Below are positions 233 through 61,524 of a stretch of DNA of 64,000 nucleotides, in pieces. The notes under the pieces are model-generated. The model was given only the letters and a program-made list of their open reading frames with translations. It did not search any database and was not told the DNA's origin. The first letter of the stretch is position 1; every line of letters begins with the position of its first letter. Made by a program: the position numbers and the translations under genes. Source of the stretch: an uncultured Candidatus Saccharibacteria bacterium. Its GTDB lineage: Bacteria; Patescibacteriota; Minisyncoccia; Phycocordibacterales; PALSA-1337. The stretch lies in NCBI GenBank assembly GCA_964468845.1, contig CAYXWP010000001.1, positions 6,411-70,410 of the forward strand. Reading direction: 5' to 3'.

Positions 233-1369
233 CTATTCATGTACAACTCTTAGAACTTCCTCCTGACTTGTAATTCCCTTTTCGACCTTGCACATTCCAT
301 CCTCGTACATTGTGACCATGCCCTTACTTCTTACATATTTACCTATTTCGTCTATAGAGATATGAGACATAATGTATTTTCTGAGCTCTTCGTCGACAAC
401 TATAGTTTCCGCAATCACAGTTCTTCCCCGATAACCAATAGTTCCGCAATCGGCACAACCAATACCTTTGCATTCCTGACATATCTTTCTAACTAACCTT
501 TGTGCGATAACTAAGGATAAAGTTGAGGCAACGAGGTAAGGATCAATTTTCATATCAAACAATCTAGGAATCGCACCAAGTGCAGAATTGGTGTGTAAAG
601 TAGATAAGAGTAAATGCCCAGTCAGAGAAATGTTTGTAGCAATCTGAGCTGTCTCAGTATCACGAATTTCACCAACCATAATAATATCTGGATCTTGCCT
701 AACAATGGATCTCAAACCATTTGCAAAAGTAATACCATGCTTAGAATGTATTTGTATTTGCCGAACCCCTGATATTGCATACTCGATCGGATCTTCAAGA
801 GTAATGATGGAATTTTTCTGTGAAGAAAGTGACGAAATTAAAGTATACAGTGTTGAGGTTTTGCCAGAACCAGTCGGTCCAGTGACCAGTATCATTCCTT
901 GATGTTGTGTTAGTAGGTTTTCGATTCGCATAATGTCATGTTCTGAAAATCCGAGCTTCGACAAGGACATTGAATCATTATTATTTTTTAATATTCTCAA
1001 AACTGCATTTTCACCGTAATGAGTCGGGATAATCGAGACACGCACATCGCAATCACAAACACCTTCATTAAATTTAAATCTTCCATCCTGCGGCACAAAG
1101 TGAATGTCTGTTCTCAAAGCAGAAATTACTTTTATCCTAGCAATGAGTTCTTCATGACTTTCATTTCTTAATGTGTCTTTGTATATCAAAACCCCATCTA
1201 CACGAAATCTGACGACAATACCTGCGGGTGTTGGATCTATATGTATATCAGAGGCATTTAAATGATAGCCGTAGCATATTATTGAATTCACCAGTTCAAC
1301 AACTGATTGAATATCGTGTAATACCCTTTCATTTAAATTAATTTTGTATTGCTCATCTGGCATACACAT
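233..1369 (-). CDS. Type II/IV secretion system ATPase, GspE/PilB family
   Basis: Walker A GPTGSGKTST, Asp/His boxes, and a C-terminal tetracysteine CQEC...CADCG motif that is typical of GspE/PilB and absent from PilT. At 378 aa the N-terminal domain is shortened. Confidence 0.8.
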   Translation of the reverse strand: MCMPDEQYKINLNERVLHDIQSVVELVNSIICYGYHLNASDIHIDPTPAGIVVRFRVDGVLIYKDTLRNESHEELIARIKVISALRTDIHFVPQDGRFKFNEGVCDCDVRVSIIPTHYGENAVLRILKNNNDSMSLSKLGFSEHDIMRIENLLTQHQGMILVTGPTGSGKTSTLYTLISSLSSQKNSIITLEDPIEYAISGVRQIQIHSKHGITFANGLRSIVRQDPDIIMVGEIRDTETAQIATNISLTGHLLLSTLHTNSALGAIPRLFDMKIDPYLVASTLSLVIAQRLVRKICQECKGIGCADCGTIGYRGRTVIAETIVVDEELRKYIMSHISIDEIGKYVRSKGMVTMYEDGMCKVEKGITSQEEVLRVVHE

Positions 1370-1386
1370 AAACTAGCAAAGAATTA

Positions 1387-1410
1387 TTAAGAACTTTTAA
1401 AGAAGTTCTA
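1387..1410. promoter_or_regulatory. Inverted repeat TTAAGAACTT-n-AAGTTCTAA 18 nt upstream of the ATPase start; putative operator
   Basis: A near-identical 26-bp palindrome recurs at 23517-23543 in front of the ORF6N gene. Both copies lie in the promoter/RBS zone of minus-strand genes. Confidence 0.3.
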
Positions 1411-1666
1411 AAGAAACAATAAAGATTTAGTACTATGTGCTCATATTCCACATCGCTTGCTATTATTTAAATGTGTGTTAGTATCTTCAACCTAACTTCG
1501 GCACTCAAACAAAAGCTCAGGACGGGCACGGTGTCGAAAAAAGAACAACTGTACACTGCAAAAAACATGACAAGCGACCACGACACTCGAGGTGGAGACC
1601 ACGATGACGAAATCATCACGGCCACACTCAACGATTGAACGAAGACTCGTCTCCACACACCGCTGC

Positions 1667-22693: not shown

Positions 22694-22740
22694 ATATATG
22701 CGTAAGAAAAAGTATTAAAAAAATATTGATAACACTTCTT

Positions 22741-22766
22741 CCCACTTGCCCACCATTTTATCCCAC
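22741..22766 (-). promoter_or_regulatory. Three GTGGG direct repeats (MraZ-box-like) 48-73 nt upstream of mraZ
   Basis: The minus strand reads TGTGGGataaaatGGTGGGcaaGTGGG. MraZ operators in other bacteria are GTGGG-type direct repeats upstream of mraZ. Confidence 0.4.
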
Positions 22767-22805
22767 AGTATGTACTTATGCAAACACAGTTATCCACTTT
22801 TGCAC

Positions 22806-22834
22806 AAAAAAACCGCAGTTCAAGCGGTTTTTTA
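22806..22834. terminator. Bidirectional terminator separating the ORF6N gene from the mraZ promoter
   Basis: aaaaaaaccgc-agttcaa-gcggtttttt. Confidence 0.55.
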
Positions 22835-22892
22835 GATGATTATATATGCGATTAAATAATATAAAAAAATTATTCTTAACCCTAAGTTCAAT

Positions 22893-22917
22893 CTTGAGGT
22901 ACCAAATTGGTACCTCA
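22893..22917. repeat. 25-bp perfect palindrome ttgaggtacc-aaatt-ggtacctcaa immediately after the ORF6N stop
   Basis: A near-identical twin (ttgaggttcc-aaatt-ggaacctcaa) lies inside the same gene at 23236-23262. Confidence 0.5.
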
Positions 22918-22928
22918 AAACCTATTTA

Positions 22929-23504
22929 CTATTTCTTATTAAACCCAATTTTTCTTTTTTGCTTAAACGGTTTCTCAATTACTGATTTATTAATTAAGTC
23001 TTTAACAGCTGAGTGAACATGAGTAAGTAATACTCCTTGATCCCTTTGTTTAAGCTCAATTTCACCTATCTTAACTGACAGGTCTTTATAGTTATCTAGA
23101 GATTCTCGCATTTTTATAAACGCTCTAATAATAAATATGTTCATTTCTATCGCTTTTTTACTATTTAGTACAGAGGAAAGCATAGCGACACCGTGTTCGG
23201 TGAAAACATATGGCAAATAACGGCTTCCGCCATGGCTAAAACTTGAGGTTCCAAATTGGAACCTCAAGTTTTTATATTCTTCTCGTGTCAATGAAAACAT
23301 AAAATCAATTGGAAATCTCGACATATTCCTTTTCACTGCTTTATTAAAATTCTTTGTTGAAATTTGATATAACTCTGCCAAATCTCTATCAATCATTACT
23401 TTTTGTCCTCTCACAATAAATATTTTTTGCTTGATTATTTCCTCTTGCTTAATATTAATATTTTTATGCATGTAAATTAAATTAATTAATAATACACACA
23501 TCAT
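22929..23504 (-). CDS. ORF6N-domain protein (phage-type KilA-N-related DNA-binding / antirepressor-like)
   Basis: IFIVRGQKVMIDRDLAELYQISTKNFNKAVKRNMSRFPIDFMFSLTREEY...SHGGSRYLPYVFTEHGVAMLSSVL matches the ORF6N family pattern. The true start may be the internal Met at 23471. Confidence 0.7.
   Translation of the reverse strand: MMCVLLINLIYMHKNINIKQEEIIKQKIFIVRGQKVMIDRDLAELYQISTKNFNKAVKRNMSRFPIDFMFSLTREEYKNLRFQFGTSSFSHGGSRYLPYVFTEHGVAMLSSVLNSKKAIEMNIFIIRAFIKMRESLDNYKDLSVKIGEIELKQRDQGVLLTHVHSAVKDLINKSVIEKPFKQKRKIGFNKK
23236..23262. repeat. Intragenic palindrome cttgaggttcc-aaatt-ggaacctcaag, twin of 22893-22917
   Basis: It encodes ...LRFQFGTSSF... within the ORF6N domain. Confidence 0.5.
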
Positions 23505-23516
23505 ACCGAATCAGGG

Positions 23517-23543
23517 TTAAGAACTTCTAAAGAAGTTCTTAAG
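23517..23543. promoter_or_regulatory. Palindrome TTAAGAACTTC-taaa-GAAGTTCTTAA 13 nt upstream of the ORF6N ATG; putative operator
   Basis: 11-bp perfect arms. A closely related copy lies upstream of the pilus ATPase at 1387-1410. Confidence 0.35.
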
Positions 23544-23579
23544 AGATGATAAAGACTGGGGATAAGTCACAAAACCCTC

Positions 23580-25049
23580 CTACTTCTTCGGTCTCATCAA
23601 TGGGAACATTTGTAATTCACGTAGAGGTTTGTCAGCAAGAAAAGCAAAGAATCTTTCTCCAAATCCGAAACCACATGTTGGTGGCATACCGTGTTCAAGC
23701 ATTTCAATAAATTCGTAATCCGCCATCATAGCTTCTGTATCGCCAGAATCAATAAGTTTCTGTTGGCTATCAAATCTTTCTCTCTGATCCACTGGATCAT
23801 TCAATTCAGAATACCCTCTTCCAACTTCACTTCCGGCAATAATTGGCTGAAACATCTGTGCGACATTTGTTGTCTTTCCGTCTTCTCCAACTACACTTTT
23901 TGCTAAAGGAGAAACAAGTAATGGATGATTGATGAGGAATGCTGGTCCGGAAATATTTTTTCTACAATATTTCCAAAGACTGTCTGTAAGTCTCTCCTTA
24001 TTCTTTCCATCATACTCAACCTTCAAGTCCTGCAATTTCTTCATCATCTCCTTTTCATTTGCAGTATTTATATCAACACCTGTCTGCTTTTTAATTTCGT
24101 CTGAGTAATCAATTTTTACCCATTCCTCTGCGAGATCGAAAGTGTGACCGCGAGTTGTAAACTTTGTAGTACCAAAAACTTCCTGAGCTATTTTTATATA
24201 CATTTCTCTCACTAATTTCATTCCATCATTATAATCAGCAAAAGACCAATAGAATTCCATATTTGTGAATTCCTGTGCATGCTCTGGACTTGTTCCTTCA
24301 TTTCTAAACACCTTACCTATTTCAAAAGTTTTTGGAAATCCCGCAGCCATCAAACGCTTCTGCCATAATTCGCCAACAGATATTCTCAAGTACACATCAA
24401 GGTCATAATCATTGTGATGAGTCTTAAAAGGTGTAGCTTCCGCACCTCCAGTTGTCACCTCGAGCATTGGTGTTTCTACTTCGATAAAGCCATTTTCTTT
24501 TAGAAAATTTCTTGTTACATCCCAGAACTTTATTTTCTTCATGAACAAATCGCGAAGCTCCTCATTCATTAAAATATCTAAATATCGCTTTCTGTATCTT
24601 TCATCGTCGTCTTTTATTCCATGCCACTTTTCTGGCAAAGGCAAAAGCGTTTTTGTAGCAATTGTCCAGGATTTTACAAGTAGACTTTGCTCTCCACGTT
24701 GTGTAGCAAAAAATTTTCCTGTAACAGAAATGAAATCCCCAATGTCTACTGCATCGGTAAATAACTGAAATAGTTTTTCGTCAATTTCATCCTTTTTGAA
24801 TACTGCTTGAAATTTCCCCTTTCCGTCATAAAGAACGACAAAAAGAATTGCTCCTTGTCCTCTGATCGCCATTATTCTTCCAGCAATTGAAAATTCTTTT
24901 CCACTTTTTTCATTTTCAATAAAACCAGCTTTGGCATCAGCAAGACAGAATGAACGAGGAACTTTGCTAGGAAATGGATTCATCCCCGCCTTTTTTAGTA
25001 TTTCAAGTTTTGCTATTCTTGTAGATTTTAATTCTTCTAAAGAAGACAT
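23580..25049 (-). CDS. lysS: Lysyl-tRNA synthetase (class II)
   Basis: N-terminal OB anticodon-binding domain plus class II motifs 1-3. Confidence 0.95.
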   Translation of the reverse strand: MSSLEELKSTRIAKLEILKKAGMNPFPSKVPRSFCLADAKAGFIENEKSGKEFSIAGRIMAIRGQGAILFVVLYDGKGKFQAVFKKDEIDEKLFQLFTDAVDIGDFISVTGKFFATQRGEQSLLVKSWTIATKTLLPLPEKWHGIKDDDERYRKRYLDILMNEELRDLFMKKIKFWDVTRNFLKENGFIEVETPMLEVTTGGAEATPFKTHHNDYDLDVYLRISVGELWQKRLMAAGFPKTFEIGKVFRNEGTSPEHAQEFTNMEFYWSFADYNDGMKLVREMYIKIAQEVFGTTKFTTRGHTFDLAEEWVKIDYSDEIKKQTGVDINTANEKEMMKKLQDLKVEYDGKNKERLTDSLWKYCRKNISGPAFLINHPLLVSPLAKSVVGEDGKTTNVAQMFQPIIAGSEVGRGYSELNDPVDQRERFDSQQKLIDSGDTEAMMADYEFIEMLEHGMPPTCGFGFGERFFAFLADKPLRELQMFPLMRPKK

Positions 25050-29836: not shown

Positions 29837-31625
29837 TATAAATAAGTATATTTATTCAACATATAGGTATTTTATTATACCATTTTGCTTAATGAGTAGT
29901 ATTGTAATATTAGTCATTATTATTTATTTTCCTATCTATGGTAATACATTTAAACCTTATACTGGTTTAATTAGCCCCCTAAAATTTTTTTCAGCATTGG
30001 GATTAATCATGCTAATAATTAAATTTAATAATTATTTTAAGACCCCAAAACAATCTATAGATATAAAAAAGGAATACTTTTTTCATCCAATATTGCTCAC
30101 AGCATTTATTATTACATACATTTTAACCAGATTGTATTTTATCCTTCATTCCCCGATTAATGTCTCTGATGATTGGCAAGCGATTACTTCAGGAAAAAGC
30201 ATAATAGAAAATGGTTATTTTCCATCAATCACCACTAATGATTCTCAATATGGATATATTAGGGGCGCGTATGTTTCAATTCTTGTTGCAATATTTTTTA
30301 AATTGTTTGGATATAGTATTTATGTTGCAAAGGCAGTACCAGCTTTTATTGGATTATTAAACTCAATATTGTTTTATAATATTTGTAGCAAGATTTTTCA
30401 AAATAGGTGGGTAAAAGTATTGTCATTGATAATATATATAGTTTGTCCACTAATTATATTTAATGATTGGTTTATTAGAATGTATGTTTTTTATGAGTTT
30501 TTTGCACTTTTAAGTATATTATTTCTATTTAGGATCAATTTATTTATTGAAACTAAACAAAACAAAAAAATACTCACGTATATTATATTAATAGTCCTCA
30601 TAAATATATTTTGTTGGTTTCTAAGCTTTGATCCAGGAAAATACCTTATACTCATACTAAATATATTTGGTTTATTTGCGATTCTATTTTTAAATAGAAA
30701 AGAATTATACAAATTTGATATTATAAAAAAGATAACTTGTAATAAGTTTTTACGAATTACTGATATGTTTATATTAGTAACTATTATTATGTCTGGGTTT
30801 ATGATTAGATATTTCCCAGTAATTCAGGATAGAATATTTTTTTTATTAAATGGTAAATTAGATAACTCATTACATTTATCTTTTTATAAAATATTTTTTG
30901 AGGAAAATATAATATTAACACTTCTCTTTATTACTTCCTCATTATTTATTGTAAAATTAAAAAATAACAGTAGTAAATTAATTACCATTATAGGAATATC
31001 GTTATTTTTACTTCATTTAATTTCAAGTGATGACCTACAAGTTTCAAGAGGATTACTATATTTTATACCAATCTACATTATTATTGCTTTAATTTCACTT
31101 GAAAATATTATTGAGTGGATAGGATCTAAGTTATTTTCTATTTTACTTATTATGATAATTGTATTAAATATATTACTATCTTTTCCTTTAAATTATATTG
31201 AATCATTTCCGAGTTTAGAAAATGAACTTCACTATCAAGATGATCTTGGTTTATATTCCTTTATTAAAACAGATTTAAAAAACTATACTATATTACAATC
31301 AACATATGAAAATATGCCCGATTTATTTTTTGATACCTATACGGAATTTAATATTATATTAAATAGTCACTCTACAACTGATATACCCTATTTTTACTTT
31401 GATTCAGAAAATAATTTATATAGACAAATATCAACTAAAACACCAGTTGTGACAAACGCTGACATTTTTGAAAATAAATTTAATATTTTATTAAAAAATA
31501 AAGTAGCAATAGTAATTTTGCCACACGTTAGAGAATTATTTATTGATAATAAAACTTTTGAAGTGATAAGACAAAAACTTCCAAACTTGAGAAAATTTGT
31601 TGGATATGAAATATACTATAATTAG
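29820..31625 (+). CDS. Large polytopic membrane protein; possible second GT-C glycosyltransferase or O-antigen polymerase-like
   Basis: 601 aa, extremely AT-rich, at least 12 TM helices in the N-terminal two thirds and a soluble C-terminal domain. No diagnostic motif recognised. Confidence 0.35.
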   Translation: MPFKNNINKYIYSTYRYFIIPFCLMSSIVILVIIIYFPIYGNTFKPYTGLISPLKFFSALGLIMLIIKFNNYFKTPKQSIDIKKEYFFHPILLTAFIITYILTRLYFILHSPINVSDDWQAITSGKSIIENGYFPSITTNDSQYGYIRGAYVSILVAIFFKLFGYSIYVAKAVPAFIGLLNSILFYNICSKIFQNRWVKVLSLIIYIVCPLIIFNDWFIRMYVFYEFFALLSILFLFRINLFIETKQNKKILTYIILIVLINIFCWFLSFDPGKYLILILNIFGLFAILFLNRKELYKFDIIKKITCNKFLRITDMFILVTIIMSGFMIRYFPVIQDRIFFLLNGKLDNSLHLSFYKIFFEENIILTLLFITSSLFIVKLKNNSSKLITIIGISLFLLHLISSDDLQVSRGLLYFIPIYIIIALISLENIIEWIGSKLFSILLIMIIVLNILLSFPLNYIESFPSLENELHYQDDLGLYSFIKTDLKNYTILQSTYENMPDLFFDTYTEFNIILNSHSTTDIPYFYFDSENNLYRQISTKTPVVTNADIFENKFNILLKNKVAIVILPHVRELFIDNKTFEVIRQKLPNLRKFVGYEIYYN

Positions 31626-31629
31626 AAAT

Positions 31630-32385
31630 CTATATATTTAAAATCAGTCTTATCTTCTTTTTTATTATAAAAATATAATATCTAAGATAACCAAAATAGA
31701 ACTTAACAATCAATGATGACTCCCTATAATTTTCTCTTTTCTGTCTTGAACTCACTCCATCTATTCCATAGACAGCAACGTCTCTATCTAAGTAACCAAT
31801 TCCTTTTTTTTGAATATAAAATTTACAAATCAGATCAAAGTCAGATGCAATTCTGTAGTTTAAATTAAATAAACTAAAATTAATAATTGATCTTCTATCC
31901 ATAAAAATTGCTTGATGTGGTGGTCTCCTACCAGCTTTTATATCTTTATAATTAAATATACCTCCAATCTTATTATAATCACCGCTCTTTGACATAAAAG
32001 TTACATTTCCATACAACATATCAATTTTTTGCGTTTTGTAATAATTCATCATATCTAAAATTGAATTATTGTCAGCAATAACGTCATCCGCCCCAAGAAA
32101 ATATATAACATCACCCTTTGACAGACTAACTCCTTTGTTCATCGCGTCATAGATACCACTGTCTGGCTCGCTTATTATACAATCGATTGAATCTTGGTAT
32201 TTATCTATAATACTTAGTGTCCCATCAGTAGATTCACCATCAACAATAATATATTCAAAATTTCTATAATTCTGATGTGCGACAGACTTTATTGTATTTT
32301 CAATGGTATCTTTGGCATTAAAGACAACAGTGATGATACTAAGAAAGGGTTTATCTATTTTTTTATTTTCATATCTTTTGTGCAT
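31630..32385 (-). CDS. Family 2 glycosyltransferase
   Basis: SIITVVFNAKDTIENTIKSV...YIIVDGESTDGT and DxD. Confidence 0.8.
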   Translation of the reverse strand: MHKRYENKKIDKPFLSIITVVFNAKDTIENTIKSVAHQNYRNFEYIIVDGESTDGTLSIIDKYQDSIDCIISEPDSGIYDAMNKGVSLSKGDVIYFLGADDVIADNNSILDMMNYYKTQKIDMLYGNVTFMSKSGDYNKIGGIFNYKDIKAGRRPPHQAIFMDRRSIINFSLFNLNYRIASDFDLICKFYIQKKGIGYLDRDVAVYGIDGVSSRQKRENYRESSLIVKFYFGYLRYYIFIIKKKIRLILNI

Positions 32386-33673
32386 TTTTTTTAAGAAGAA
32401 AATAATAATATGATATAAATAATATATCAGTAAGACATCTTATACCAACCGTAGCATATACTCCACCCATAAATCCAAACTTACTAATTAACATATATGT
32501 AAATGGGATATTGAGTATGCCGAATATAAGTAAGAAATACATATTAATCTTTGCGTGTCCTGTAGCAACACTGAAGCCAACAGAAACGACAGCTGCGACA
32601 GCTTGTGTAATTAACATAATTAGCATCACATAAAATGCATTAAAGAAAATTACAGCCTGATATTTAATTAATATGTACTTTAGAATGAAAGGTACAAGTA
32701 AATATGAAGCAATAGTTAAAATAATTGAAATAACAAATATTAATGTAAAGTATTGTTTAAATTTTTTATATATTTCACTGACTCTTCCACTAGCATACAG
32801 ACCAGTAATATCAGGTGAGATCACCTGAGCAAAAATCATAAATGGTGACACTAGAATTAGAAAAATTTTATTAATCAATTCGTAAAAACCAATTTCGGAT
32901 ATATAACCAAAGTGACCTAATAGAATCACATCTACTCTGCTATATACAAAATAACTTAGACTTATTACACCAAGAATTATAGAATATTTGCTAATATTTC
33001 TAATAACTGATAAATCAACTTTAATCTTCCATTCTCTTGGCCAATAGCCAATCAGAATAGCTAAAAAAAAGATAATTGAAAATACGTTATTAGCCCAAAG
33101 AGCACCAAACAATCCCCAAAAATATATAAGGGGTAAAGAAATAATTAATCCAATAATACCCGTAAATGCGGTTATAATTGATAGTTTTTTAAATAATTTT
33201 AACCCGCGATATATTCCTGTATAGATATAAGTTAACGGAAGAAAAATTAATGATGGAATTAAATTTTTTACAAATATGAACTCCTTTCCTAATAGAGATG
33301 GTCCAAATATTAATAATAACAAACTCAATAATATTAAAATAGATCCAACAAAAACCAACGTACTAAATGATAAATATTTTAGTTTGTCTTTATTAGTTTC
33401 ATTATACTCGGCAACATATTTTGATGTTGCAGTAGATACACCAAAATCTCCAAATAAAACAAGTAGCATCAATATGGCTACTGAATAATTATAAATACCA
33501 AAGTCATATGAATTTAATAACCACGCTGATATAAAAAATACACCCAATATAAACAGCTGTTTCCCTGATATTTGAATAAACTGCCAAAAAGTATTAGCTA
33601 GTGTTTTTTTATTATTTAAATATATTATTCTTATTTTGTTAATCATTTTTAATACGTTTATATAAGACTGCAA
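32369..33673 (-). CDS. Wzx-like oligosaccharide flippase (MOP superfamily, polysaccharide biosynthesis protein)
   Basis: 434 aa with 12-14 TM helices and the typical MOP-flippase hydrophobic profile. Confidence 0.6.
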   Translation of the reverse strand: MQSYINVLKMINKIRIIYLNNKKTLANTFWQFIQISGKQLFILGVFFISAWLLNSYDFGIYNYSVAILMLLVLFGDFGVSTATSKYVAEYNETNKDKLKYLSFSTLVFVGSILILLSLLLLIFGPSLLGKEFIFVKNLIPSLIFLPLTYIYTGIYRGLKLFKKLSIITAFTGIIGLIISLPLIYFWGLFGALWANNVFSIIFFLAILIGYWPREWKIKVDLSVIRNISKYSIILGVISLSYFVYSRVDVILLGHFGYISEIGFYELINKIFLILVSPFMIFAQVISPDITGLYASGRVSEIYKKFKQYFTLIFVISIILTIASYLLVPFILKYILIKYQAVIFFNAFYVMLIMLITQAVAAVVSVGFSVATGHAKINMYFLLIFGILNIPFTYMLISKFGFMGGVYATVGIRCLTDILFISYYYFLLKKNAQKI

Positions 33674-34598
33674 AGTTAGTTATGATTAACGATAAACCAT
33701 CCATCCATGGCTTAATTAATAAGCTTTGAAAAAATAAACCAGTTTGATGTGCAGATTTAATTGAGAAAAAAATTAATAATCCTCCACCAATCATGAAAAG
33801 CAGTAGTGAAAGCTTTGGAATATATACGCAACTTAATAATATTATTAAAAAATATATTATTGGTATATTAAAACGAAATAATACACTTAATGGGTCATTC
33901 ATACCCATTTTAATCATGGTTGCTCGCCCTAAAGAACCTTTAATCAATGTAGAAATATAATCTAGAAAAAATGATGTATTGTCATGAAAAATAAAAGTGT
34001 GAGGGTTATAAATAATATTATAATTTGATTTAAATATTCTTTCACAAAGCTCTTTATCCTCAGAGAAACGGGTAACATTTGATGTTGTTTGTAGTTTTTC
34101 GAGAAAATTACCTACTTTTTTTAGAACATTTTTTCGAATCGCGAGATTGCAACTAGGACATCCACGCATATATTTAAAATGTTTGAACCTAGGATACCCA
34201 TCTAATAGTGCAACTCCGAGATAGTTTGATATCCAAGTTACGTTAAATGGTAAAATCATGCCTATTCCAGCACCAGTTTTAGTATCTACGAAAGTTTCGT
34301 CATTACAAAAATTTAGATACTCAGAATCAATTTTTGTATCGGCATCAAGAAATAATAGAATTTCTCCTAATGATTTTTCTATTCCTAAATTTCTAGCCTC
34401 AGATGGCCCACTCTTAACTTCTAAAAATACTTTTATTGGATATTTTCTAGCTATGTTTATGCTTGCGTCATTAGAATTATTATCAACATAAATAATTTCG
34501 TATGCTTTTTTTGGATAATTTAATTTTAGACATGATTGAATACATCTATCTAAATTTTTTTCTTCATTATAACCACATATAATTATACTAAATTTCAT
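33639..34598 (-). CDS. Family 2 glycosyltransferase with C-terminal TM helices
   Basis: FSIIICGYNEEKNLDRCIQS...IIYVDNNSNDAS and the DAD motif. Confidence 0.75.
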   Translation of the reverse strand: MKFSIIICGYNEEKNLDRCIQSCLKLNYPKKAYEIIYVDNNSNDASINIARKYPIKVFLEVKSGPSEARNLGIEKSLGEILLFLDADTKIDSEYLNFCNDETFVDTKTGAGIGMILPFNVTWISNYLGVALLDGYPRFKHFKYMRGCPSCNLAIRKNVLKKVGNFLEKLQTTSNVTRFSEDKELCERIFKSNYNIIYNPHTFIFHDNTSFFLDYISTLIKGSLGRATMIKMGMNDPLSVLFRFNIPIIYFLIILLSCVYIPKLSLLLFMIGGGLLIFFSIKSAHQTGLFFQSLLIKPWMDGLSLIITNFAVLYKRIKND

Positions 34599-34599
34599 A

Positions 34600-35715
34600 T
34601 TATTTTATATACTTTTCAGCAATTTTTTTTAAATTAAATTGATTACTATATTTTATTATTTTTTCTCTATTAAAATAATTTTCGTTAAAAATAGTCCCTA
34701 TGTCTTTTATAGTCTGATCTATATTATTATATTCAATTAAAAAACCATTTGTATTATTTACTAAGTCAGCCTGTCCACCATTATTTGTTGCTACGATTGG
34801 TAGACCGACTTGCATAGCTTCCTGCAAGACAATTCCAAAACCTTCATGAACAGACGATAGAAAAAATATATCACTATTTTGTAAATATTGAAACTTTTTG
34901 TTTTGATCTATAAACCCAGTAAAGATTATCTTATTAGATATACCTAGTTTATAAGCTAAATTTTTTAATTGTTTCTCCTCTGGACCATCACCAATTATTA
35001 TTCCAATGACATTATTTGGTAATTTAGATATAACTTTAATAAAAAAATCAAAGCCTTTTCTTTTTACAAGCCTACCGACTCCGATAACATACTTTTTATC
35101 TACTTCCAAACCTATTTCTGATCTACTTTTTTTATCAAATGGCACCAACTCGTATGGTAGTGGGATAATCTGTATATCATTTTTAGGGTGATAATATTTT
35201 ATACAATTTTCCTTCGTATTTGAAGATTGGGCCACTATAGTATTGGCTCTATTTAAAAGGAAAGTAATGCATTTCCTTAAATACCAATGTAAGTGAGGCG
35301 AATTATTTTTAGTTGGATCATATATATCACCACCATGAAGAGAGACTATATTTTTAATATGAAATAGTCTTGCTAAAATATATCCAAGTGGGCCAGTAGG
35401 CACTACAAACTGGGTATTAATAAACTCATATTTATTCTTTCTACATAAAGATATCCCTTTCCACAACCCAGAAATTGGATAACAGAGCATGGAAATAGTT
35501 GTGGCGGTAGATAATTCCTTTCTGCCAAAAACTTTTACTCTATATACATTAATACCATCAATAATCTCAAACTTTCTTAATCCTTTATACCATGTAGTAA
35601 TGTAGTCTACCTGATAACCAAGTTCTACAAAACCTTTTGCTAATTTATGAGCAGCAACACCTCCTCCCCCACCAAGTGGTGGAAATTCATAGTTTAGGAC
35701 TAATATCTTTTTCAT
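34600..35715 (-). CDS. Family 4 (GT-B, group 1) glycosyltransferase
   Basis: N-terminal GGGGGVAAH and the C-terminal EGFGIVLQEAMQVGLPIVAT (E-x7-E region). Confidence 0.8.
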   Translation of the reverse strand: MKKILVLNYEFPPLGGGGGVAAHKLAKGFVELGYQVDYITTWYKGLRKFEIIDGINVYRVKVFGRKELSTATTISMLCYPISGLWKGISLCRKNKYEFINTQFVVPTGPLGYILARLFHIKNIVSLHGGDIYDPTKNNSPHLHWYLRKCITFLLNRANTIVAQSSNTKENCIKYYHPKNDIQIIPLPYELVPFDKKSRSEIGLEVDKKYVIGVGRLVKRKGFDFFIKVISKLPNNVIGIIIGDGPEEKQLKNLAYKLGISNKIIFTGFIDQNKKFQYLQNSDIFFLSSVHEGFGIVLQEAMQVGLPIVATNNGGQADLVNNTNGFLIEYNNIDQTIKDIGTIFNENYFNREKIIKYSNQFNLKKIAEKYIK

Positions 35716-36677
35716 TATTTTATTAGAATCTCTCTCACTCTATATCTCCTCTCATGTTTCGATGTATTGAATCGAATACCAATAAGTAGATCAATTACAA
35801 TACCGAAACTAAATAATATTATACCAGCAATTATTAGAAATGCTGTTATGAAGAAGAGGCCGTTTCTGTTGAACCCAAGGCCCATAAATATTTTTTCATA
35901 AAGAGTCCAGAATCCTGCTACGAATCCAAAGAAGAAACATGTGATACTTGCGTAGCCAAAAAGGTGCAGAGGTCTTTGTGAATATTTCTGTATAAACCAA
36001 ATATATACTAGGTCGATAAAACCTCGTATTGCTTTACTGCAATTATATTTACTCTTACCAACTGTCCTTGGGCGATGATTCACTACCAATTCACCAATTC
36101 TAAAACCTTTCCATTTTAAAATAGCTAGAATATAACGATGCATCTCACCTCCTATATCTAGACAATCAACTGCCTCCTTTGTATAAACTCGAAGCATACA
36201 CCCACTATCATGAACAATATCACCTATAAGTATTCGGCGAAGTATACGGCCAATACGTGTAAGAATATTAATACTAGAGCTATCCATTCTCTTCTTTCTC
36301 CATCCAGCAACTACATCTAGGTTCTCTTTTATTAGCTTATCAAAAAGGAGTGGTATATCAGCTGGATCATTCTGACAATCGCCATCCATAGTTACTACAT
36401 ACTTGCCAGTACAAGCTCTAAAACCAGCGTCTAAGGCTGTTGCTTGACCATAGTTACGGTTTAGATTGATGATCTTCGCATTACTTAGTGTATTGAGCTC
36501 TGTTAGGGTTTCATCAGTACTACCATCATTCACATAAATAACTTCGTAATCTCCTGAAATATCAGACAAAGATGTTTTTATTTCCTGATCTAGTCTACTA
36601 ATATTCCCTGCTTCATTATATATAGGGACCACAATAGACAGTCTTTTTCCTGTATTTTCCATAAAAATACTATACAT
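35715..36677 (-). CDS. Polyprenyl-phosphate glycosyltransferase (GT2; GtrB / ArnC / DPM1-like)
   Basis: LSIVVPIYNEAGNI...VIYVNDGSTDET and DGD, plus two C-terminal TM helices characteristic of Und-P-sugar synthases. Confidence 0.7.
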   Translation of the reverse strand: MYSIFMENTGKRLSIVVPIYNEAGNISRLDQEIKTSLSDISGDYEVIYVNDGSTDETLTELNTLSNAKIINLNRNYGQATALDAGFRACTGKYVVTMDGDCQNDPADIPLLFDKLIKENLDVVAGWRKKRMDSSSINILTRIGRILRRILIGDIVHDSGCMLRVYTKEAVDCLDIGGEMHRYILAILKWKGFRIGELVVNHRPRTVGKSKYNCSKAIRGFIDLVYIWFIQKYSQRPLHLFGYASITCFFFGFVAGFWTLYEKIFMGLGFNRNGLFFITAFLIIAGIILFSFGIVIDLLIGIRFNTSKHERRYRVREILIK

Positions 36678-42455: not shown

Positions 42456-42875
42456 TTATTTCACGGCTTCAATCTTAGCTGCTTCAATTGGATTCGCCAA
42501 TGTATGCTTCATTTCCTCAACCATTTGATCCAAACTATAATTTGTCTTTATAAGATATCCTGAAGCATTATTCGTAACGGCATCAGAAATCGCATCTAGC
42601 TTGTCCACCAAAGTTAACATAATAATCTTTACCTGCTTACCCCATTGGTCTTGTCTTAACCTCTTTAAAACTTCAAGACCATCAATTCCAGGCATAAGTA
42701 AGTCTAGCAAAATAATATCTGGATGGACCGAAAAAGCCTTCTGTATTCCCTCTTCTCCATTTGTCGCTCCTATGGCTTCAAACCCAGAAATATTCAATTT
42801 ACTCACAAGGACAGTGTTCAAATTTACATCATCATCAATGACTAATATTTTTTTCTTATTACTAGGATTATCCAT
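42456..42875 (-). CDS. Stand-alone response regulator receiver (CheY-like)
   Basis: KILVIDDD...DIILLDLLMPGIDG...K. No output domain. Confidence 0.8.
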   Translation of the reverse strand: MDNPSNKKKILVIDDDVNLNTVLVSKLNISGFEAIGATNGEEGIQKAFSVHPDIILLDLLMPGIDGLEVLKRLRQDQWGKQVKIIMLTLVDKLDAISDAVTNNASGYLIKTNYSLDQMVEEMKHTLANPIEAAKIEAVK

Positions 42876-42902
42876 GTTATTGATTATATTATTTATATGT
42901 TA

Positions 42903-44201
42903 TTAAAACGTAATGGTAAAAATACTACCCTTATTCTCTTCTGATGAAAAGCGTATATCACCTCCCATTGAAACTATTATTGATTTTACCAGATATAAGC
43001 CCAAACCGGTACCTTGACTACTACTTAATTTCTTAACATTGTCCGCTCTAAAGAGTTTGGAAAATATTCTATCCTGCTGGTCTATAGGTATACCAAAACC
43101 AGTATCCGAAACAACTATTCTCCTCTCATTCGATGATTCTTCAAAATTGATGGAAATCGTACCACCATCTGGAGTATATTTTATTGCGTTTGAAACCAAA
43201 TTTTGTATAACAATACGAAATAGTTTTGGATCGCTCTCTATACTCTCGAACAAACCATTATAATTAACAACCAAATTAATCTTTTTTAAATTAATCTGCA
43301 ATGCAAATTCATTTTTAATACTCTCTAACAAATCCTGTACATTGGTTGGCACTTTTTCAACTGCCAAAGAACCCATTTCAATTCTTGAGATATTCAGTAG
43401 CACATCCACGAGCTCAACCATGTTCTGATTCGCAACATGCAAAACAGTCATGTACTTTTTTTGTTCATCGTTAAGTACACCAATATCTCCAGAAAATAAC
43501 ATATCGGTGTACCATTTTGTTGTGGCAAGTGGAGTTTTCAATTGGTGTGCTGCAAGTGATAAAAACTCCGTCTTTGCTTTTTCGATTAGTTTCTGCTCAG
43601 TAATATCCATAATTACTGCTAGTCCTGTGCTCAAATAACTACCTGGACCTCTCATATCAAAAACGGAAATCATAACTGATCTGACTGTTCCATCTTTTAT
43701 CATCATCTGTACCTCTTTCCTATTTATAGAAACCTTGGACCTAAAGTATGCAAAAAGATCGCCGGCTTTTTCTTTTGAATCATCGGAGACAAAAGAAAAG
43801 AAGTTTTTATTTTCAATATCTTCAGTCAATGAACCAAAAAAACGTAGCGCAGCCTTGTTTGGCTCATGCATATTACCATCACCGTCCAACATTACATATG
43901 GAATAGGTGCACTTTCATATAGTCTTTTGAATTGCTGTTTTGAGAAAGCTAAATCCTTTGTTTCATTCCATATTTCCAAATTAAACCGAGAGTTAAAGGT
44001 TAATAATAAATAAAATATAAATGAAAGTGAAACAGCCACAATAATAAATAAAACAAGAATAATCTTTACGTTCGTCTGTACGTCAACCAATAGAATATCC
44101 AAAATAAAATTACGAGATGCAAATAACACACCAAGAAGTGTAATCAAAAAAATCAAAGAAACAAGCACATGTGTAGAATACAGTTTACCTTGATTTGACA
44201 T
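42903..44201 (-). CDS. Sensor histidine kinase with TM and PAS domains
   Basis: Two N-terminal TM helices and a PAS-like region, then H-box LAAHQLKTPL and the HATPase_c boxes (N, G1 DTGFGIP, G2 GTGLGL). Confidence 0.8.
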   Translation of the reverse strand: MSNQGKLYSTHVLVSLIFLITLLGVLFASRNFILDILLVDVQTNVKIILVLFIIVAVSLSFIFYLLLTFNSRFNLEIWNETKDLAFSKQQFKRLYESAPIPYVMLDGDGNMHEPNKAALRFFGSLTEDIENKNFFSFVSDDSKEKAGDLFAYFRSKVSINRKEVQMMIKDGTVRSVMISVFDMRGPGSYLSTGLAVIMDITEQKLIEKAKTEFLSLAAHQLKTPLATTKWYTDMLFSGDIGVLNDEQKKYMTVLHVANQNMVELVDVLLNISRIEMGSLAVEKVPTNVQDLLESIKNEFALQINLKKINLVVNYNGLFESIESDPKLFRIVIQNLVSNAIKYTPDGGTISINFEESSNERRIVVSDTGFGIPIDQQDRIFSKLFRADNVKKLSSSQGTGLGLYLVKSIIVSMGGDIRFSSEENKGSIFTITF

Positions 44202-44229
44202 ACCTACATTATATCAGACAATGTAATCA

Positions 44230-44997
44230 CTACCATCCCCAGATATTAGCGGCCTTAAAGATGCCACTCTCAGCAATTGAGCCAGATATCTTTATCTTAT
44301 CAGAAAATTTCAAGCAATCTTCAGTATGCCATTTAGCATCATCAGTTTTAATCACCCACACTCCACCATGGAAATCCAAAAGGGTTATCTTTGTAGTAGA
44401 AGTACTAGGGACCGCGCCAAGATCAGTACATGCTTTTATTCCTTCAATTTCAAGGATTTCCCCACCAAGTAAACCATCCTCTGATCGACTCCATACGGAC
44501 AGTTTAGTATTTGATACCTCGTGATAATATGGGACTTCATTAATAAAAAACCTATCGACATATTCAAACGTATTAGTAAAATAAAATACCACTCCAAGCA
44601 ATATGTACACAGCAATGACAATGTAAGTCACCTGAAAAAACTGTCTATATCCGTATTTTGTTTTTATAAAATCAAAATATGCCAAAACGGCTACAGCCAA
44701 AAATATCGTCAACCAAAACAATAGATCTATAAAATATACAAGATAGCTAAAGACACCTCCAGACTGAAGGGCAACTGCATCATTACTATCGAACAAAGTG
44801 TAGATAAAAACACTTAATGCCAGACTTGCAATTACAACAAGCGAAACACAGAGTACCCAGAAAATCGCCTCATTAACGAAGAAGTGCCATTTAGGTTTAA
44901 CTTTAATTTTCTTGTCAGATATCATTTGCAAAACCTGGGCTTCTACCATGCTTCCGCCCTCGTCTTTTTTCATATCTGTTTTATTTTGTTTGGTCAT
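44230..44997 (-). CDS. Membrane protein, putative anti-sigma factor
   Basis: It overlaps the ECF sigma stop by 4 nt (translational coupling). Cytoplasmic N-terminus, 4-5 TM helices and an extracytoplasmic C-terminal domain. Confidence 0.35.
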   Translation of the reverse strand: MTKQNKTDMKKDEGGSMVEAQVLQMISDKKIKVKPKWHFFVNEAIFWVLCVSLVVIASLALSVFIYTLFDSNDAVALQSGGVFSYLVYFIDLLFWLTIFLAVAVLAYFDFIKTKYGYRQFFQVTYIVIAVYILLGVVFYFTNTFEYVDRFFINEVPYYHEVSNTKLSVWSRSEDGLLGGEILEIEGIKACTDLGAVPSTSTTKITLLDFHGGVWVIKTDDAKWHTEDCLKFSDKIKISGSIAESGIFKAANIWGW

Positions 44998-45623
44998 ATG
45001 TCTTTTTTTGTTAAATTATTGCTTCCTGCAAGTTCCTTGAACTCTTTTTTTGCCCTATGCACAAGTATTGCAACAGTTCCCAAGGGAATTTTTAAAATAT
45101 CAGAAATTTCATTATAATCCTTATCCTCTAAATATTTCAAAACCAATACAGCCCTGTACTTTTCCTTCATTTTTAGTAAAACTTGCAATACCTGCTCCTT
45201 TAACATTCTACCATTTGATTCCTCCGCAACATTCACTTTATCATCTGGAATATTCACAAAAAAATCCTCTTCCTCGTCGCTTGAAGCGGTTTTTGGTCTA
45301 ATTTTGAGTTTCCTAATATAATCAATTGTCTCGTTATGAGCAATACGATATATCCAAGAAGAAAATGGTAAGTTTATATCGAAGTTATTTAAATTTCTGT
45401 ACACTTTTATAAAAATATTTTGTAGCAAGTCATCTATTTCAAAAGACGTAGACCTCGCTATCCTGTAAATGTATCTTTCGATACGCGGAGAATACTTGCG
45501 CATTATCTTACCAAATGCCTCTGGCTTTAATAGTGTTTCCGCAACCAAAATTCTATCATCTTCCATGACCTCTAATGTTTTTGAATTTTCATGAAGAATT
45601 GTTAATTTGTCACCCTTTTTCAT
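44994..45623 (-). CDS. RNA polymerase ECF-type sigma-70 factor
   Basis: Sigma region 2 (YIYRIARSTSF...FSSWIYRIAHN) and region 4 HTH (YNEISDILKIPLGTVAILVHRAKKEF). Confidence 0.8.
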   Translation of the reverse strand: MKKGDKLTILHENSKTLEVMEDDRILVAETLLKPEAFGKIMRKYSPRIERYIYRIARSTSFEIDDLLQNIFIKVYRNLNNFDINLPFSSWIYRIAHNETIDYIRKLKIRPKTASSDEEEDFFVNIPDDKVNVAEESNGRMLKEQVLQVLLKMKEKYRAVLVLKYLEDKDYNEISDILKIPLGTVAILVHRAKKEFKELAGSNNLTKKDI

Positions 45624-52916: not shown

Positions 52917-54221
52917 TCAATCAATCGCGCCCGAAATGGAATTGGTCGCCTTATCGCCAATATCATGTCGCATCTGCTTGCCATTGAAATGGATTTCGTT
53001 GGCAGCAGCATAAGCACGTTTCTTAGCTATATGAAGATTTTCTCCCCAAGCAGTGACTCCTAGGACTCGTCCCCCATTGGTACCAAACATCTGGCCCATG
53101 CGCTTAGTCCCAGCATGAAAGATTTTGACATTGTCCATTTTGGATACTCGATCGAGCCCCCAAATCAACTGATCGTTACTTTGCCCTTTCGGATACCCCT
53201 TTGAGGCAAGCACGATGCAGACCGAGGCACCCGGAAACCAGTCCAATTTAACATGGCTGGAACCGCCGTCCGACGAGCATGCATATAGAACTTCAAACAG
53301 ATCGGAGCCAAGCCTGGACAGATATGCTTGAGCTTCCGGATCACCAAAGCGGGCATTAAATTCGAGAACCTTCAAACCCTTGTCCGTGAGCATAACCCCT
53401 GGATAGAGTAAACCTCGATAATCGATACCTTCTGTTACGCATCCATCATGCCAGTGTGCAATTATATCCTCATTGATTTTCTTGAGTAGCCCATTGTGAA
53501 CAAATGGCGTGGGAAAATATGCACCCATACCGCCTGTCATGGGACCTTGATCACCATCAAGAAAATGCTTATGATCTTGAGAAGTCGGAAATAGATACAC
53601 GTTCCTCGCGTTGCAAAGAATGTGAAGTGAGATCTCTGTTCCAACAAGCCGTTCCTGTATAAGAATTGGAGAGTCCGGCTTATTCGCAAACTTAGCATCA
53701 ATCATCTCAATGGCCTCCTCAATGAAATCTGGTAAACTCACACCCTTGCCCCTACATAATCCATCAGATTTAATGACACATCGCCCACCAAGTTTTTCAA
53801 CGTAATGTTTTGCAGGTTCTGGGTCGCTAAACACTTCCCCATTTGGCGATGGAATACCATAACGCTTCATGAAGTTGTGAGAATAAACCTTGGATGACTC
53901 AAGTTGTGCAGCCTTCTGATTTGGTCCGAATATGGCAAACTTTTTCCTTGCAAAGAGATCCGCAATACCGATTGCAAGCGGATCGTCAGGACCGACAACA
54001 GTCAGTGTTGGTTTCTTCTCACAAGCAAAGCTAAAAAGTCGTGGCAAATCTGTGACCTTAATACCAACGCATTGCACGGAATTGCCGTTCTTCAGTCGCT
54101 CTTGTGCTATACCAGGATTACCTGGAGCACACCACAGTTCCGTAACTTGTGGTGATTGTGCCAATGACCACACTAACGCATGTTCCCTACCACCTCCGCC
54201 AATAACCAGTACAGTGCTCAT
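52917..54221 (-). CDS. purD: Phosphoribosylamine--glycine ligase (GAR synthetase), copy 1; GC-rich
   Basis: MSTVLVIGGGGREHALVW and an ATP-grasp domain with LEFNARFGDPE. The start is trimmed to the Met at 54221 because the track's N-terminal extension is AT-rich leader. Confidence 0.9.
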   Translation of the reverse strand: MSTVLVIGGGGREHALVWSLAQSPQVTELWCAPGNPGIAQERLKNGNSVQCVGIKVTDLPRLFSFACEKKPTLTVVGPDDPLAIGIADLFARKKFAIFGPNQKAAQLESSKVYSHNFMKRYGIPSPNGEVFSDPEPAKHYVEKLGGRCVIKSDGLCRGKGVSLPDFIEEAIEMIDAKFANKPDSPILIQERLVGTEISLHILCNARNVYLFPTSQDHKHFLDGDQGPMTGGMGAYFPTPFVHNGLLKKINEDIIAHWHDGCVTEGIDYRGLLYPGVMLTDKGLKVLEFNARFGDPEAQAYLSRLGSDLFEVLYACSSDGGSSHVKLDWFPGASVCIVLASKGYPKGQSNDQLIWGLDRVSKMDNVKIFHAGTKRMGQMFGTNGGRVLGVTAWGENLHIAKKRAYAAANEIHFNGKQMRHDIGDKATNSISGAID

Positions 54222-54295
54222 AATTTTATTTCCTTTCGAAGAACATTCACCATTGACTATACTGATTTTTAGCAAAAAAACAACCGATAGAAAAC

Positions 54296-54844
54296 TTACT
54301 CCACCAATGTAATCCTTGGCCACCTTTCCTTCCACTTCTTTTTTTCCATCCTTTCTTTGATTACATCTATCCTATCTTTAAAAACTGGACTCGGTCTTAC
54401 AATAAAATTTACAAGGTCACTTATCCCATGTGGGGCAACTAAGACCAAGTTGCCATTTTTATCCATGCTCACACCTACCGCAGTAGCTGTCTCTGGCCAC
54501 TTTGAAATTGCATCTTCAGTTGATGTATATGGAGATAAACCATTCCACTTATTTGCATAGAATTCGTTTACAACTTCCCATTCAATTCCAGTCTCCTCTT
54601 GAAGCTTGGTAGACAATTTTTTATCCGCCTCCTCGTCATTACCGTTTGGATCAAAATATACCAAATCGATGTCAGTAATATCGGCAGTTGTATTCTCAAT
54701 CCCTGACAAATGATTCCATATTTTACTTCTCACAAAGCCAGCACCGATAACCCAATCGGGTAAATTTAGTGTAGAAGCAATTGTAATAATTTTCATCATC
54801 CATTCGTCTTGTTTTATTAAATTGTGTATGTCTTGTTCGGTCAT
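54296..54844 (-). CDS. Nucleotidyltransferase-family protein (NTP_transf_6 / DUF925-like)
   Basis: WVIGAGFVRSKIWNHL...DIDLVYFD. Confidence 0.5.
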   Translation of the reverse strand: MTEQDIHNLIKQDEWMMKIITIASTLNLPDWVIGAGFVRSKIWNHLSGIENTTADITDIDLVYFDPNGNDEEADKKLSTKLQEETGIEWEVVNEFYANKWNGLSPYTSTEDAISKWPETATAVGVSMDKNGNLVLVAPHGISDLVNFIVRPSPVFKDRIDVIKERMEKKKWKERWPRITLVE

Positions 54845-60228: not shown

Positions 60229-61524
60229 TCAGTGGACCGCCAAGGACTTGGCACCGATATCTTTCCGATACTGTGCACCTTCGAAGTCGATGCACTCCAC
60301 ACCGTTGTAAGCGTGATCGAGTGCTTCCTGTAGCGTTGCACCGATGCCGGTGACACCGAGGACACGTCCGCCAGATGTGACGAGATGGCTATCAGTTTGC
60401 TTGGTACCTGCATGGAACACGACGACGCCAGGAAGAATCTCGGCGTTATCGATGCCTGTGATCGGCAGACCTTTTTTGTAGTTAGGCGATGGGTAGCCAC
60501 CGGACGCCATTACAATGCAGGCAGCGAAGCCCGGATTCCACTCGACGTTGATCTCATGGAGTCGTCCTTCGACGCACGCCTCCAAGATGTCGAGCAGATC
60601 TGTTTTCAAGAGACACATGTAAACCTGTGTCTCCGGATCGCCGAATCGCGCATTGAACTCGAGGACCATGGGTCCCGCTTCTGGCATCTTGAGTCCGGGA
60701 TAAAGCAAACCGACGAACGGCGAGCCTTTTTCGCGGAGCCCGCTAAGAATTGGGCCGATGATCTGTTCACTCACCGCATTGTGGTCTTTGAACCACGGGA
60801 CCGGAGCAATCGTACCCATGCCACCGGTGTTCGAACCATCGTCGCCATCGAATGCCGGCTTATGATCCTGCGCTGACGGAAACAGCTTGAACGACTTGCC
60901 ATCGCAGAACGCATGGATAGACACTTCCTGTCCGCCTACATATTCTTCGATGATGACCTCATCGCCAGCGCTTCCATGAAGGTGCTTCACCATGACCTCG
61001 TCGAGAGCCTGTTCAGCTTCGGTAAAATCACGGCAGACGTACGCTCCTTTTCCGAGAGCGAGACCTGATGCCTTCACGACAATCGGTAGTCCAAAGTACG
61101 TAGCAAAATGCCTGCGCACGTCCTCGAGGACTTGAGTGTGGTCCGTGTAAACATCGAACAATGCTGTCGGCACGCCGCAATCTTTCATGAGACGTTTCGA
61201 GAACACCTTCGATGCCTCGATTTGAGCCGCTGCCTTGGTGGGACCGAAGATGCGAAGGCCTTTTGCCTGAAATGCATCCACGATGCCGAGTGCGAGCGGA
61301 TCGTCTTGGCCGACGATAGTGAATTCGATCCCTTCCTTGAGTGCGAAGGCTAAGAGGCCGTCAACGTCCGTAGCTTTCACTGGAACGTTTTCTGCGATCT
61401 GAGCCGTGCCAGCATTACCTGGAGCGACGAAGAGTTTGCCGAGTCGGGGGGATTGGCGAAGTTTCCACGCAATTGCGTGTTCACGGCCGCCACCTCCGAC
61501 CAGTAGGACTTTCATTTGGTTCAT
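60229..61524 (-). CDS. purD: Phosphoribosylamine--glycine ligase (GAR synthetase), copy 2; strongly GC-rich
   Basis: MKVLLVGGGGREHAIAW and an ATP-grasp domain with LEFNARFGDPE. AAGGAG lies 8 nt upstream of the ATG. Roughly 40-45% identical to copy 1 by eye. Confidence 0.9.
   Translation of the reverse strand: MNQMKVLLVGGGGREHAIAWKLRQSPRLGKLFVAPGNAGTAQIAENVPVKATDVDGLLAFALKEGIEFTIVGQDDPLALGIVDAFQAKGLRIFGPTKAAAQIEASKVFSKRLMKDCGVPTALFDVYTDHTQVLEDVRRHFATYFGLPIVVKASGLALGKGAYVCRDFTEAEQALDEVMVKHLHGSAGDEVIIEEYVGGQEVSIHAFCDGKSFKLFPSAQDHKPAFDGDDGSNTGGMGTIAPVPWFKDHNAVSEQIIGPILSGLREKGSPFVGLLYPGLKMPEAGPMVLEFNARFGDPETQVYMCLLKTDLLDILEACVEGRLHEINVEWNPGFAACIVMASGGYPSPNYKKGLPITGIDNAEILPGVVVFHAGTKQTDSHLVTSGGRVLGVTGIGATLQEALDHAYNGVECIDFEGAQYRKDIGAKSLAVH

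Follow-up and report, generated by a model that had tools for sequence, protein, structure and literature searches.

The two long palindromes upstream of the pilus ATPase gene pilB and of an ORF6N-domain gene in this genome are each probably the centre of a conserved promoter module bound by a tandem-repeat factor, and not self-standing operators. The module is 55 nt long on the minus strand and is built of four direct repeats in 11-bp phase, (CTTWA-N6)x4, followed by an 11-mer with a putative -10 box (nnTGnTAnnnT). Its orientation and spacing are identical at eleven sites in this organism and its relatives. The repeats have a constant structure, phase and orientation and a fixed spacing from the -10 box (at pilB also from the ATG); they are conserved between species and restricted to these genes.

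The palindromes and the phased repeats

The following features of the window, which is the whole 64-kb stretch of DNA that was analysed, are needed for the description.

233..1363, minus strand: pilB/gspE-type pilus assembly ATPase gene (Pfam T2SSE, 8e-113; NCBIfam GspE/PilB)
1370..1380, minus strand: fifth 11-mer of the pilB module, TTTGCTAGTTT, with putative extended -10 box (TG 1378-1377, TAGTTT 1375-1370)
1381..1424, minus strand: pilB promoter array, units CTTTATTGTTT CTTTAGAACTT CTTTAAAAGTT CTTAATAATTC; zero-mismatch match, PWM 65 bits
1387..1411, no strand: palindrome 1, which extends over units 2 and 3 into the first part of unit 4; arm complementarity 9/10
22929..23471, minus strand: ORF6N-domain gene, 180 aa (Pfam ORF6N, 3e-34), between lysS and mraZ
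23500..23510, minus strand: fifth 11-mer of the ORF6N module, TTCGGTATGAT, with putative -10 box TATGAT 23505-23500, in the same register as in all arrays
23511..23554, minus strand: ORF6N promoter array, units CTTTATCATCT CTTAAGAACTT CTTTAGAAGTT CTTAACCCTGA; zero-mismatch match, PWM 61 bits
23517..23542, no strand: palindrome 2, perfect 12+2+12; RNA hairpin of -11.7 kcal/mol without U-tract
23557..23565, minus strand: DnaA-box-like TTATCCCCA ('unit 0'), directly upstream of the ORF6N array, at a fixed position in relatives
23580..25049, minus strand: class II aminoacyl-tRNA synthetase gene (LysRS/AsnRS type; Pfam tRNA-synt_2 and OB fold), which ends 37 nt before palindrome 2

Palindrome 1 is TTAAGAACTTTTAAAGAAGTTCTAA, whose right arm is one T short (one indel), and palindrome 2 is TTAAGAACTTCTAAAGAAGTTCTTAA. 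The earlier note had described this pair upstream of pilB/gspE and ORF6N, and the pair is indeed present and not a chance finding: at three mismatches or fewer, the two are the only matches in the 64 kb, where shuffled sequence gave a mean of 0.02. Both starts were placed correctly in that note, but the ends were not, site 1 being 1 nt too short and site 2 1 nt too long. The similarity of the two sites goes far past the 26 bp. On the minus strand some 75 nt align ungapped, with TCTTTAT on the upstream side and a TAnnnT hexamer on the downstream side. The common orientation to a minus-strand gene stands, but the position which the sites share is relative to the -10 box and not to the start codon or RBS.

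From 44 units we obtained the consensus C-T-T-W-A-K-M-A-Y-T-T (CTTWAKMAYTT), with C1, T2 and A5 present in 44/44 units each and T3 in 43/44; the CTTWA pentamer is retained in 42/44. The pentamers alternate as CTTTA-CTTAA-CTTTA-CTTAA in seven of the eleven arrays, which gives a super-period of 22 bp and thus two 22-bp boxes. The TAnnnT falls at positions 6-11 of the fifth unit in 10/11 sites; in the L168 genome it is 1 nt off. The predicted -10 box is often extended, and at the -35 position there is AAAAGT or AGAAGT and no TTGACA-like hexamer. The pilB array of L166 carries an insertion of 22 nt, exactly two units, so its phase is intact. With the putative transcription start set 7 nt past the -10 box, the array would cover about -61 to -18.

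Two other readings of the core promoter were rejected. A sigma-70 promoter TTTAGA-18-AATAAT could be drawn over palindrome 1, but the better fit is the conserved TGnTAnnnT, which all orthologs have 6 nt upstream of the ATG. In ECF-sigma promoters 16-17 nt separate a GGAAC-type -35 element from the -10 element, which is of CGT type; here the GAAC which might serve as -35 is lost in L165, L168 and L170, and a CGT-type -10 element is missing.

The DnaA-box-like 9-mer was compared with TTATCCACA / TTWTNCACA. It is a perfect TTATCCACA at the pilB sites of L165, L166 and L168, TTATCCCCA (8/9) at the L163 pilB site as well as at ORF6N of the window, and TTTTCCACA at ORF6N of L170. It was not found at the pilin arrays nor at the pilB site of the window. 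A second factor may bind at this 9-mer.

Target genes and distribution of the module

The PilB homologs are nearly all 376 aa long, which indicates that the probable start of pilB is ATG 1363 and not 1369. The closest named homologs belong to the Patescibacteria group and to Candidatus Taylorbacteria/Paceibacterota, and on these grounds the organism is taken to be an uncultivated member of the Patescibacteria (CPR). For ORF6N the start is ATG 23471, in agreement with the gene call of the ENA source contig and with the ortholog. The spacings of 18 and 13 nt from palindrome to start in the earlier note had been taken from the longest ORFs, and they have to be corrected to 24 nt for pilB and 45 nt for ORF6N. 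Between the -10 box and the ATG of pilB there are 6 nt in five species (the A of the ATG is 7 nt past the box), and from this fixed spacing the pilB mRNA is probably leaderless, with its start at A 1363. ORF6N transcription would start near A 23493, and a 22-nt AT-rich leader without Shine-Dalgarno sequence, conserved in L170, would follow; the leaders of ORF6N and the pilin genes would be 22-26 nt long and AT-rich.

The element was also thought to lie immediately 5' of the RBS. Instead it is upstream of the -10 box, and this genome rarely uses Shine-Dalgarno sequences: they were seen in 6/71 genes of the window, and TAnnnT ends 5-7 nt upstream of 24/71 starts, many of them as TGnTAnAAT-N6-ATG. 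With so few Shine-Dalgarno sites and with TAnnnT so close to the starts, leaderless mRNAs appear to be common in this genome.

The third array of this organism precedes the major pilin gene, 6 kb past the left edge of the window. Its product, MQNIKNEKKG/FTLIE, is a genuine prepilin (KKG/FTLIE), and the link with piliation that had been suggested before is strengthened by this array. Zero-mismatch matches to (CTTWA-N6)x4 are found in this organism at 1424(-) of the window for pilB, at 23554(-) for ORF6N and at L001 14619 for the major pilin. In the relatives they precede pilB and the pilin gene of L163 and are also found there at 5966(-), and they precede pilB in L165 and L168, the pilin gene in L166 and ORF6N in L170. 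The pilB array of L166, with 2 mismatches, is the eleventh site. The array of the ORF6N ortholog is also present upstream in L171. The PilB proteins of the relatives are 86% (L165), 85% (L163), 79% (L166) and 78% (L168) identical with that of the window. L163 and L170 are one genome, coming from the same JGI sample with proteins that share the 728,797-bp longest contig. In an alignment of the upstream DNA of the five pilB genes and of ORF6N the spacing is the same throughout, and TGnTAnnnT has a constant position in all pilB orthologs.

The array at 5812-5966 of L163 (minus strand) stands with its -10 box before a tRNA-like element of about 70 nt, GGGGGTG...GCGGGTTCGACTCCCGTCACCTCCA. This element has a G3:U70 pair, A73 (an alanine-type acceptor) and a cloverleaf fold; ARAGORN gave no match, and Rfam gave a weak match to a tmRNA 3' end (E = 0.012). 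We counted it against the reading as a phased promoter module that this array of one relative precedes a tRNA-like element and not a pilus gene.

In all, about 150 kb of DNA of the lineage was examined, and the array was seen in relatives whose PilB is at least 78% identical. Two ORF6N homologs of more distant lineages, P0125 and P0133 (69-72% identical, in a different gene context), are without array. The ORF6N upstream regions of L173 and L175 have another motif in its place, ATTTACArAGTTT...AACTTTGkACACTGCA. At one mismatch or fewer, (CTTWA-N6)x4 gave no match in 1.18 Mb of unrelated loci, and at three or fewer it gave 0-1 matches in shuffled windows. Known sites score 47-76 bits with the PWM, the maximum in shuffled windows is 7.4, and L168, which was excluded from the PWM, scores 36 bits. 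The PWM scan of the window returned the two known arrays and no further site. In a scan of genome contigs with the loose pattern TTAAGAACTT-N6-AAGTTCT, the matches listed were all chance matches in unrelated taxa. With the loop fixed, a scan of metagenome contigs gave 12 unrelated matches, several of which are hairpins beside tRNA genes of other organisms. Viral scans with the palindrome and with the four-unit pattern returned chance matches and 11-bp satellites, scoring well below the real sites.

ORF6N and mraZ are syntenic in L170, L171 and L172. We left out L172 as evidence, as it resembles a strain variant but is a recombinant or an assembly chimera. Its positions 341-1768 are 100% identical with 23272-21845 of the window over 1,428 nt, on a 2.7-kb JGI contig with unrelated flanks on both sides. 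Its left breakpoint lies exactly at the edge of another palindrome, inside the ORF6N coding region. The block reflects either recombination at this palindrome or a chimeric assembly. The in-gene palindrome at 23238-23272 is a perfect 17+1+17, AAAACTTGAGGTTCCAA-T-TTGGAACCTCAAGTTTT; the peptide encoded there is NLRFQFGTSS. Another palindrome, 12+1+12 and related to it, is found at 22894-22918, 10 nt past the ORF6N stop, and reads TTGAGGTACCAA-T-TTGGTACCTCAA. The core TTGAGGTTCCAAwTTGGmACCTCAA recurs in ORF6N homologs of other lineages (L170 10214, L175 10223), and this recurrence suggests that the DNA or RNA is itself under constraint, besides the protein motif.

Among the genes of the window are bacterial housekeeping genes, those for BipA, GreA, the class II aminoacyl-tRNA synthetase and MraZ/MraW, and a dcw cluster comes after the last two. 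The proteins of the window recur on groundwater-metagenome contigs, the G+C content is about 36%, and Rfam found two tRNAs only. The gap between pilB and bipA (1412-2167, 800 bp) is unusually long and higher in G+C. It holds plus-strand ORFs of 53 aa (1871-2032) and 55 aa (1471-1638), each followed by a terminator-like stem-loop, and relatives have a gene of 186-237 aa in its place. The mraZ promoter region (22730-22840, minus strand) has three GTGGG repeats, typical of an MraZ-type operator, and a TTATCCAC box, and in it the canonical bidirectional terminator AAAAACCGC...GCGGTTTTTTT closes the ORF6N transcript. A low-G+C island (23-30%) at 30000-36000 carries glycosyltransferase and polysaccharide-export genes, and just upstream of it there are two large ORFs of 360 and 601 aa without Pfam match. 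Two full-length purD-type (GARS) genes, 52917-54335 and 60229-61524, lie within 8 kb, in regions where G+C is higher (41-47%).

Dyad symmetry and rival explanations

Judged from the repeats themselves, the dyad symmetry is a by-product of direct repeats. Arm complementarity at the eleven sites is 10, 9, 7, 9, 9, 9, 7, 5, 3, 2 and 6 out of 10. The sites with a dyad of 2-7/10 (6/11) include the pilin array of this same organism (7/10) and the array of the ORF6N ortholog (7/10). Hairpin energies in the relatives and in the organism's own pilin array are 0 to -2.4 kcal/mol. Conservation spans 44-55 nt in 11-bp phase and passes both dyad arms. CTTAAG is self-complementary and the succession TTAAGAACTT / CTTTAG / AACTTCTTAA is already 9/10 complementary; likewise, the tandem units CTTAAGAACTT / CTTTAGAACTT / CTTAA are 9/10 self-complementary before any change. 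In this genome the perfect dyad arises through a single change from C to G at the ninth position of unit 3 (G for C or T), and a G at this position occurs in 2/44 units, exactly those of the two window palindromes. The palindrome thus exists because tandem quasi-symmetric units received a single C-to-G change. The two position-9 G's may reflect selection or patchy gene conversion. What we counted against the phased module is that the dyad stays at 9-10/10 in the two closest genomes (window and L163), and in these two the symmetry may have an extra role.

The earlier note took the 26-bp palindrome for the operator of a dimeric helix-turn-helix-type regulator, perhaps ORF6N, which would repress or activate pilB and its own gene. 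The perfect 12+2+12 at ORF6N and the 9/10 at pilB agree with this, both dyad-completing G's are unique to the two sites of this genome, the palindrome overlaps the -35 region, and the L163 sites stay 9/10 complementary. Across the sites, however, the dyad falls from 10/10 to 2/10 while the phased pentamers are kept. The conserved sequence also goes beyond the half-sites, continuing in phase for 11-22 nt past the dyad on the upstream side, and a phase-keeping 22-nt insertion is tolerated. The conservation of the palindrome in relatives had been named beforehand as the check on this idea, and there the genes are retained and the palindrome is gone, the outcome that had been set to speak against it. 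We therefore regard such an operator as quite unlikely. Operators with GAAC/GTTC arms are known, such as the LexA Cheo box GAAC-N4-GTTC, and CIRCE-type repeats are 9-N9-9. The window sites are like the former in holding GAAC-N10-GTTC within a long dyad near the promoter. Both the LexA/Cheo box and CIRCE were rejected, since the spacing is wrong and GAAC/GTTC is lost at orthologous sites.

The array could also act without any factor, as an UP-like or intrinsically bent element that boosts strong promoters such as those of the pilin gene and the tRNA-like RNA. It is AT-rich, repeats at about one helical turn and lies upstream of promoters without -35 element, and the pilin and tRNA-like genes are both expected to be highly expressed. 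But the presence of C1 and A5 in all 44 units indicates base-specific contacts and not curvature, the TpA steps of each unit and its pair of short T-runs, spaced by half a turn, would be poorly suited to A-tract bending, and the two tRNA genes of the window are without array, so this explanation is unlikely. A role in RNA looks highly improbable to us. By this account palindrome 2 would be a hairpin ending or stabilising the synthetase transcript, and palindrome 1 would do the same for an unannotated minus-strand RNA. Site 2 does begin 37 nt past the synthetase stop, its hairpin of -11.7 kcal/mol has z = -4.2, and identical hairpins lie behind tRNA genes in unrelated metagenome contigs. Yet the hairpin has no U-tract, while canonical terminators of this genome have T-runs, for example at 22810-22835; site 1 is weak (-5.4 kcal/mol on the minus strand; -7.0 on the plus strand) and has no minus-strand gene upstream; and the hairpin is missing from all orthologous sites. 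Neither palindrome was called by a terminator scan, and both have no T-run, as had been stated in the earlier note. Site 2 resembles a Rho-independent terminator only as a stem-loop behind a gene, and an intrinsic terminator was rejected, with an AT-rich stem, no U-tract, no conservation and, at site 1, no upstream gene.

The origin from a mobile element considered in the earlier note left no sign in the data, and a dispersed REP- or MITE-like repeat is hardly conceivable. Near-identical copies do occur in one genome, and the three of L163 are identical at 43-44/44 positions. Against this, there are two copies in the 64 kb of the window, all eleven are directed to genes at a fixed distance from the -10 box, and they occupy orthologous promoters in five species. 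ORF6N-mraZ synteny is found in a relative, and terminal inverted repeats, target duplications and in-gene copies of the array are absent in the DNA covered. The regulatory link between pilB and ORF6N thus survives as a shared, non-terminator upstream element, present at pilB in four relatives and at ORF6N in one, but not as a palindromic operator and not as a mobile element.

Putative regulator and known systems

For the phased promoter module we propose that a sequence-specific factor would bind head-to-tail on one helix face, from about -61 to -18, most likely as a pair of dimers, in the way that regulators of the OmpR/PhoB type occupy tandem Pho boxes. The bound factor would recruit RNA polymerase to weak -10 promoters that have no -35 hexamer, so that protein binding would mean activation rather than repression. 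It would co-regulate the pilB-pilC operon, the major pilin and ORF6N, which lies by the mraZ/dcw cluster, and in a relative one or more other targets. The sharing of the module points to one common putative regulator.

Pho boxes are tandem 11-bp direct repeats to which regulators of the OmpR/PhoB family (E. coli PhoB, Bacillus PhoP) bind head-to-tail. For S. coelicolor PhoP, binding to 11-nt direct repeat units has been described (PMC2275107). The architecture of the array resembles such activator sites replacing the -35. As in Pho boxes, the 11-bp direct repeats lie on the coding strand and are paired into two 22-bp boxes (four units); they replace the -35, the last conserved pentamer being some 11 nt ahead of the -10, and cover about -60 to -20. 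Unlike Pho boxes, the unit is CTTWAKMAYTT and not CTGTCAT or GTTCACC, the targets are pilus and not phosphate genes, and no winged-helix regulator is in the window, so the analogy is one of architecture and not of membership.

In the competence/pilus regulons of ComK and sigma-X, one cis signature joins the pilus ATPase operon, pilin and further genes. The ComK K-boxes at comG of Bacillus are AAAA-N5-TTTT dyads, and the streptococcal sigma-X cin-box lies in the -10 region and serves an alternative sigma factor. The array is like these regulons in having AT-rich repeats that precede the core promoter on a single face of the helix, but its sequence matches neither K-boxes nor the cin-box, and no ComK or ComX homolog was seen. 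The type of element is classical; the motif, the gene set and the lineage are new.

No DNA-binding response regulator is encoded in the window, where the only response regulator is a receiver-only one. Its gene is in the region 42456-45623 (minus strand), together with those for a PAS histidine kinase, an unknown 255-aa protein and an ECF-type sigma factor. L163 has an ECF-type sigma factor near its pilus cluster. ORF6N, a candidate for the factor, is the only protein of DNA-binding type that is linked to the motif. Its gene is conserved beside the mraZ/dcw cluster and has its own array in two species; no relative of solved structure is detectable by sequence. We may speculate that the chromosomal ORF6N (KilA-N-type) is an autoregulated CTTWA-repeat binder and master regulator of type IV pilus expression, though we hold this to be rather doubtful.

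Long palindromes in raw sequence can arise as by-products of tandem direct repeats, and this is a general lesson from the present case. Here a sharply defined cis-element joins the pilus ATPase operon, the pilin and ORF6N, and it gives a handle for regulon prediction in complete genomes. With the array one could also look for the binding factor by pull-down or DAP-seq and design inducible promoters. Type IV pili are described as conserved in Patescibacteria, and in the few cultivated members they have been linked with attachment to the host, with twitching and with natural competence (PMC11623550, PMC10633639). Our full-text literature search returned no pilus regulator or promoter motif described for Patescibacteria and almost nothing on the function of ORF6N. 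If ORF6N were the regulator, it would control attachment or DNA uptake in this Patescibacteria lineage; a cellular ORF6N protein would then have an assigned function for the first time, and the group its first regulator of pili.
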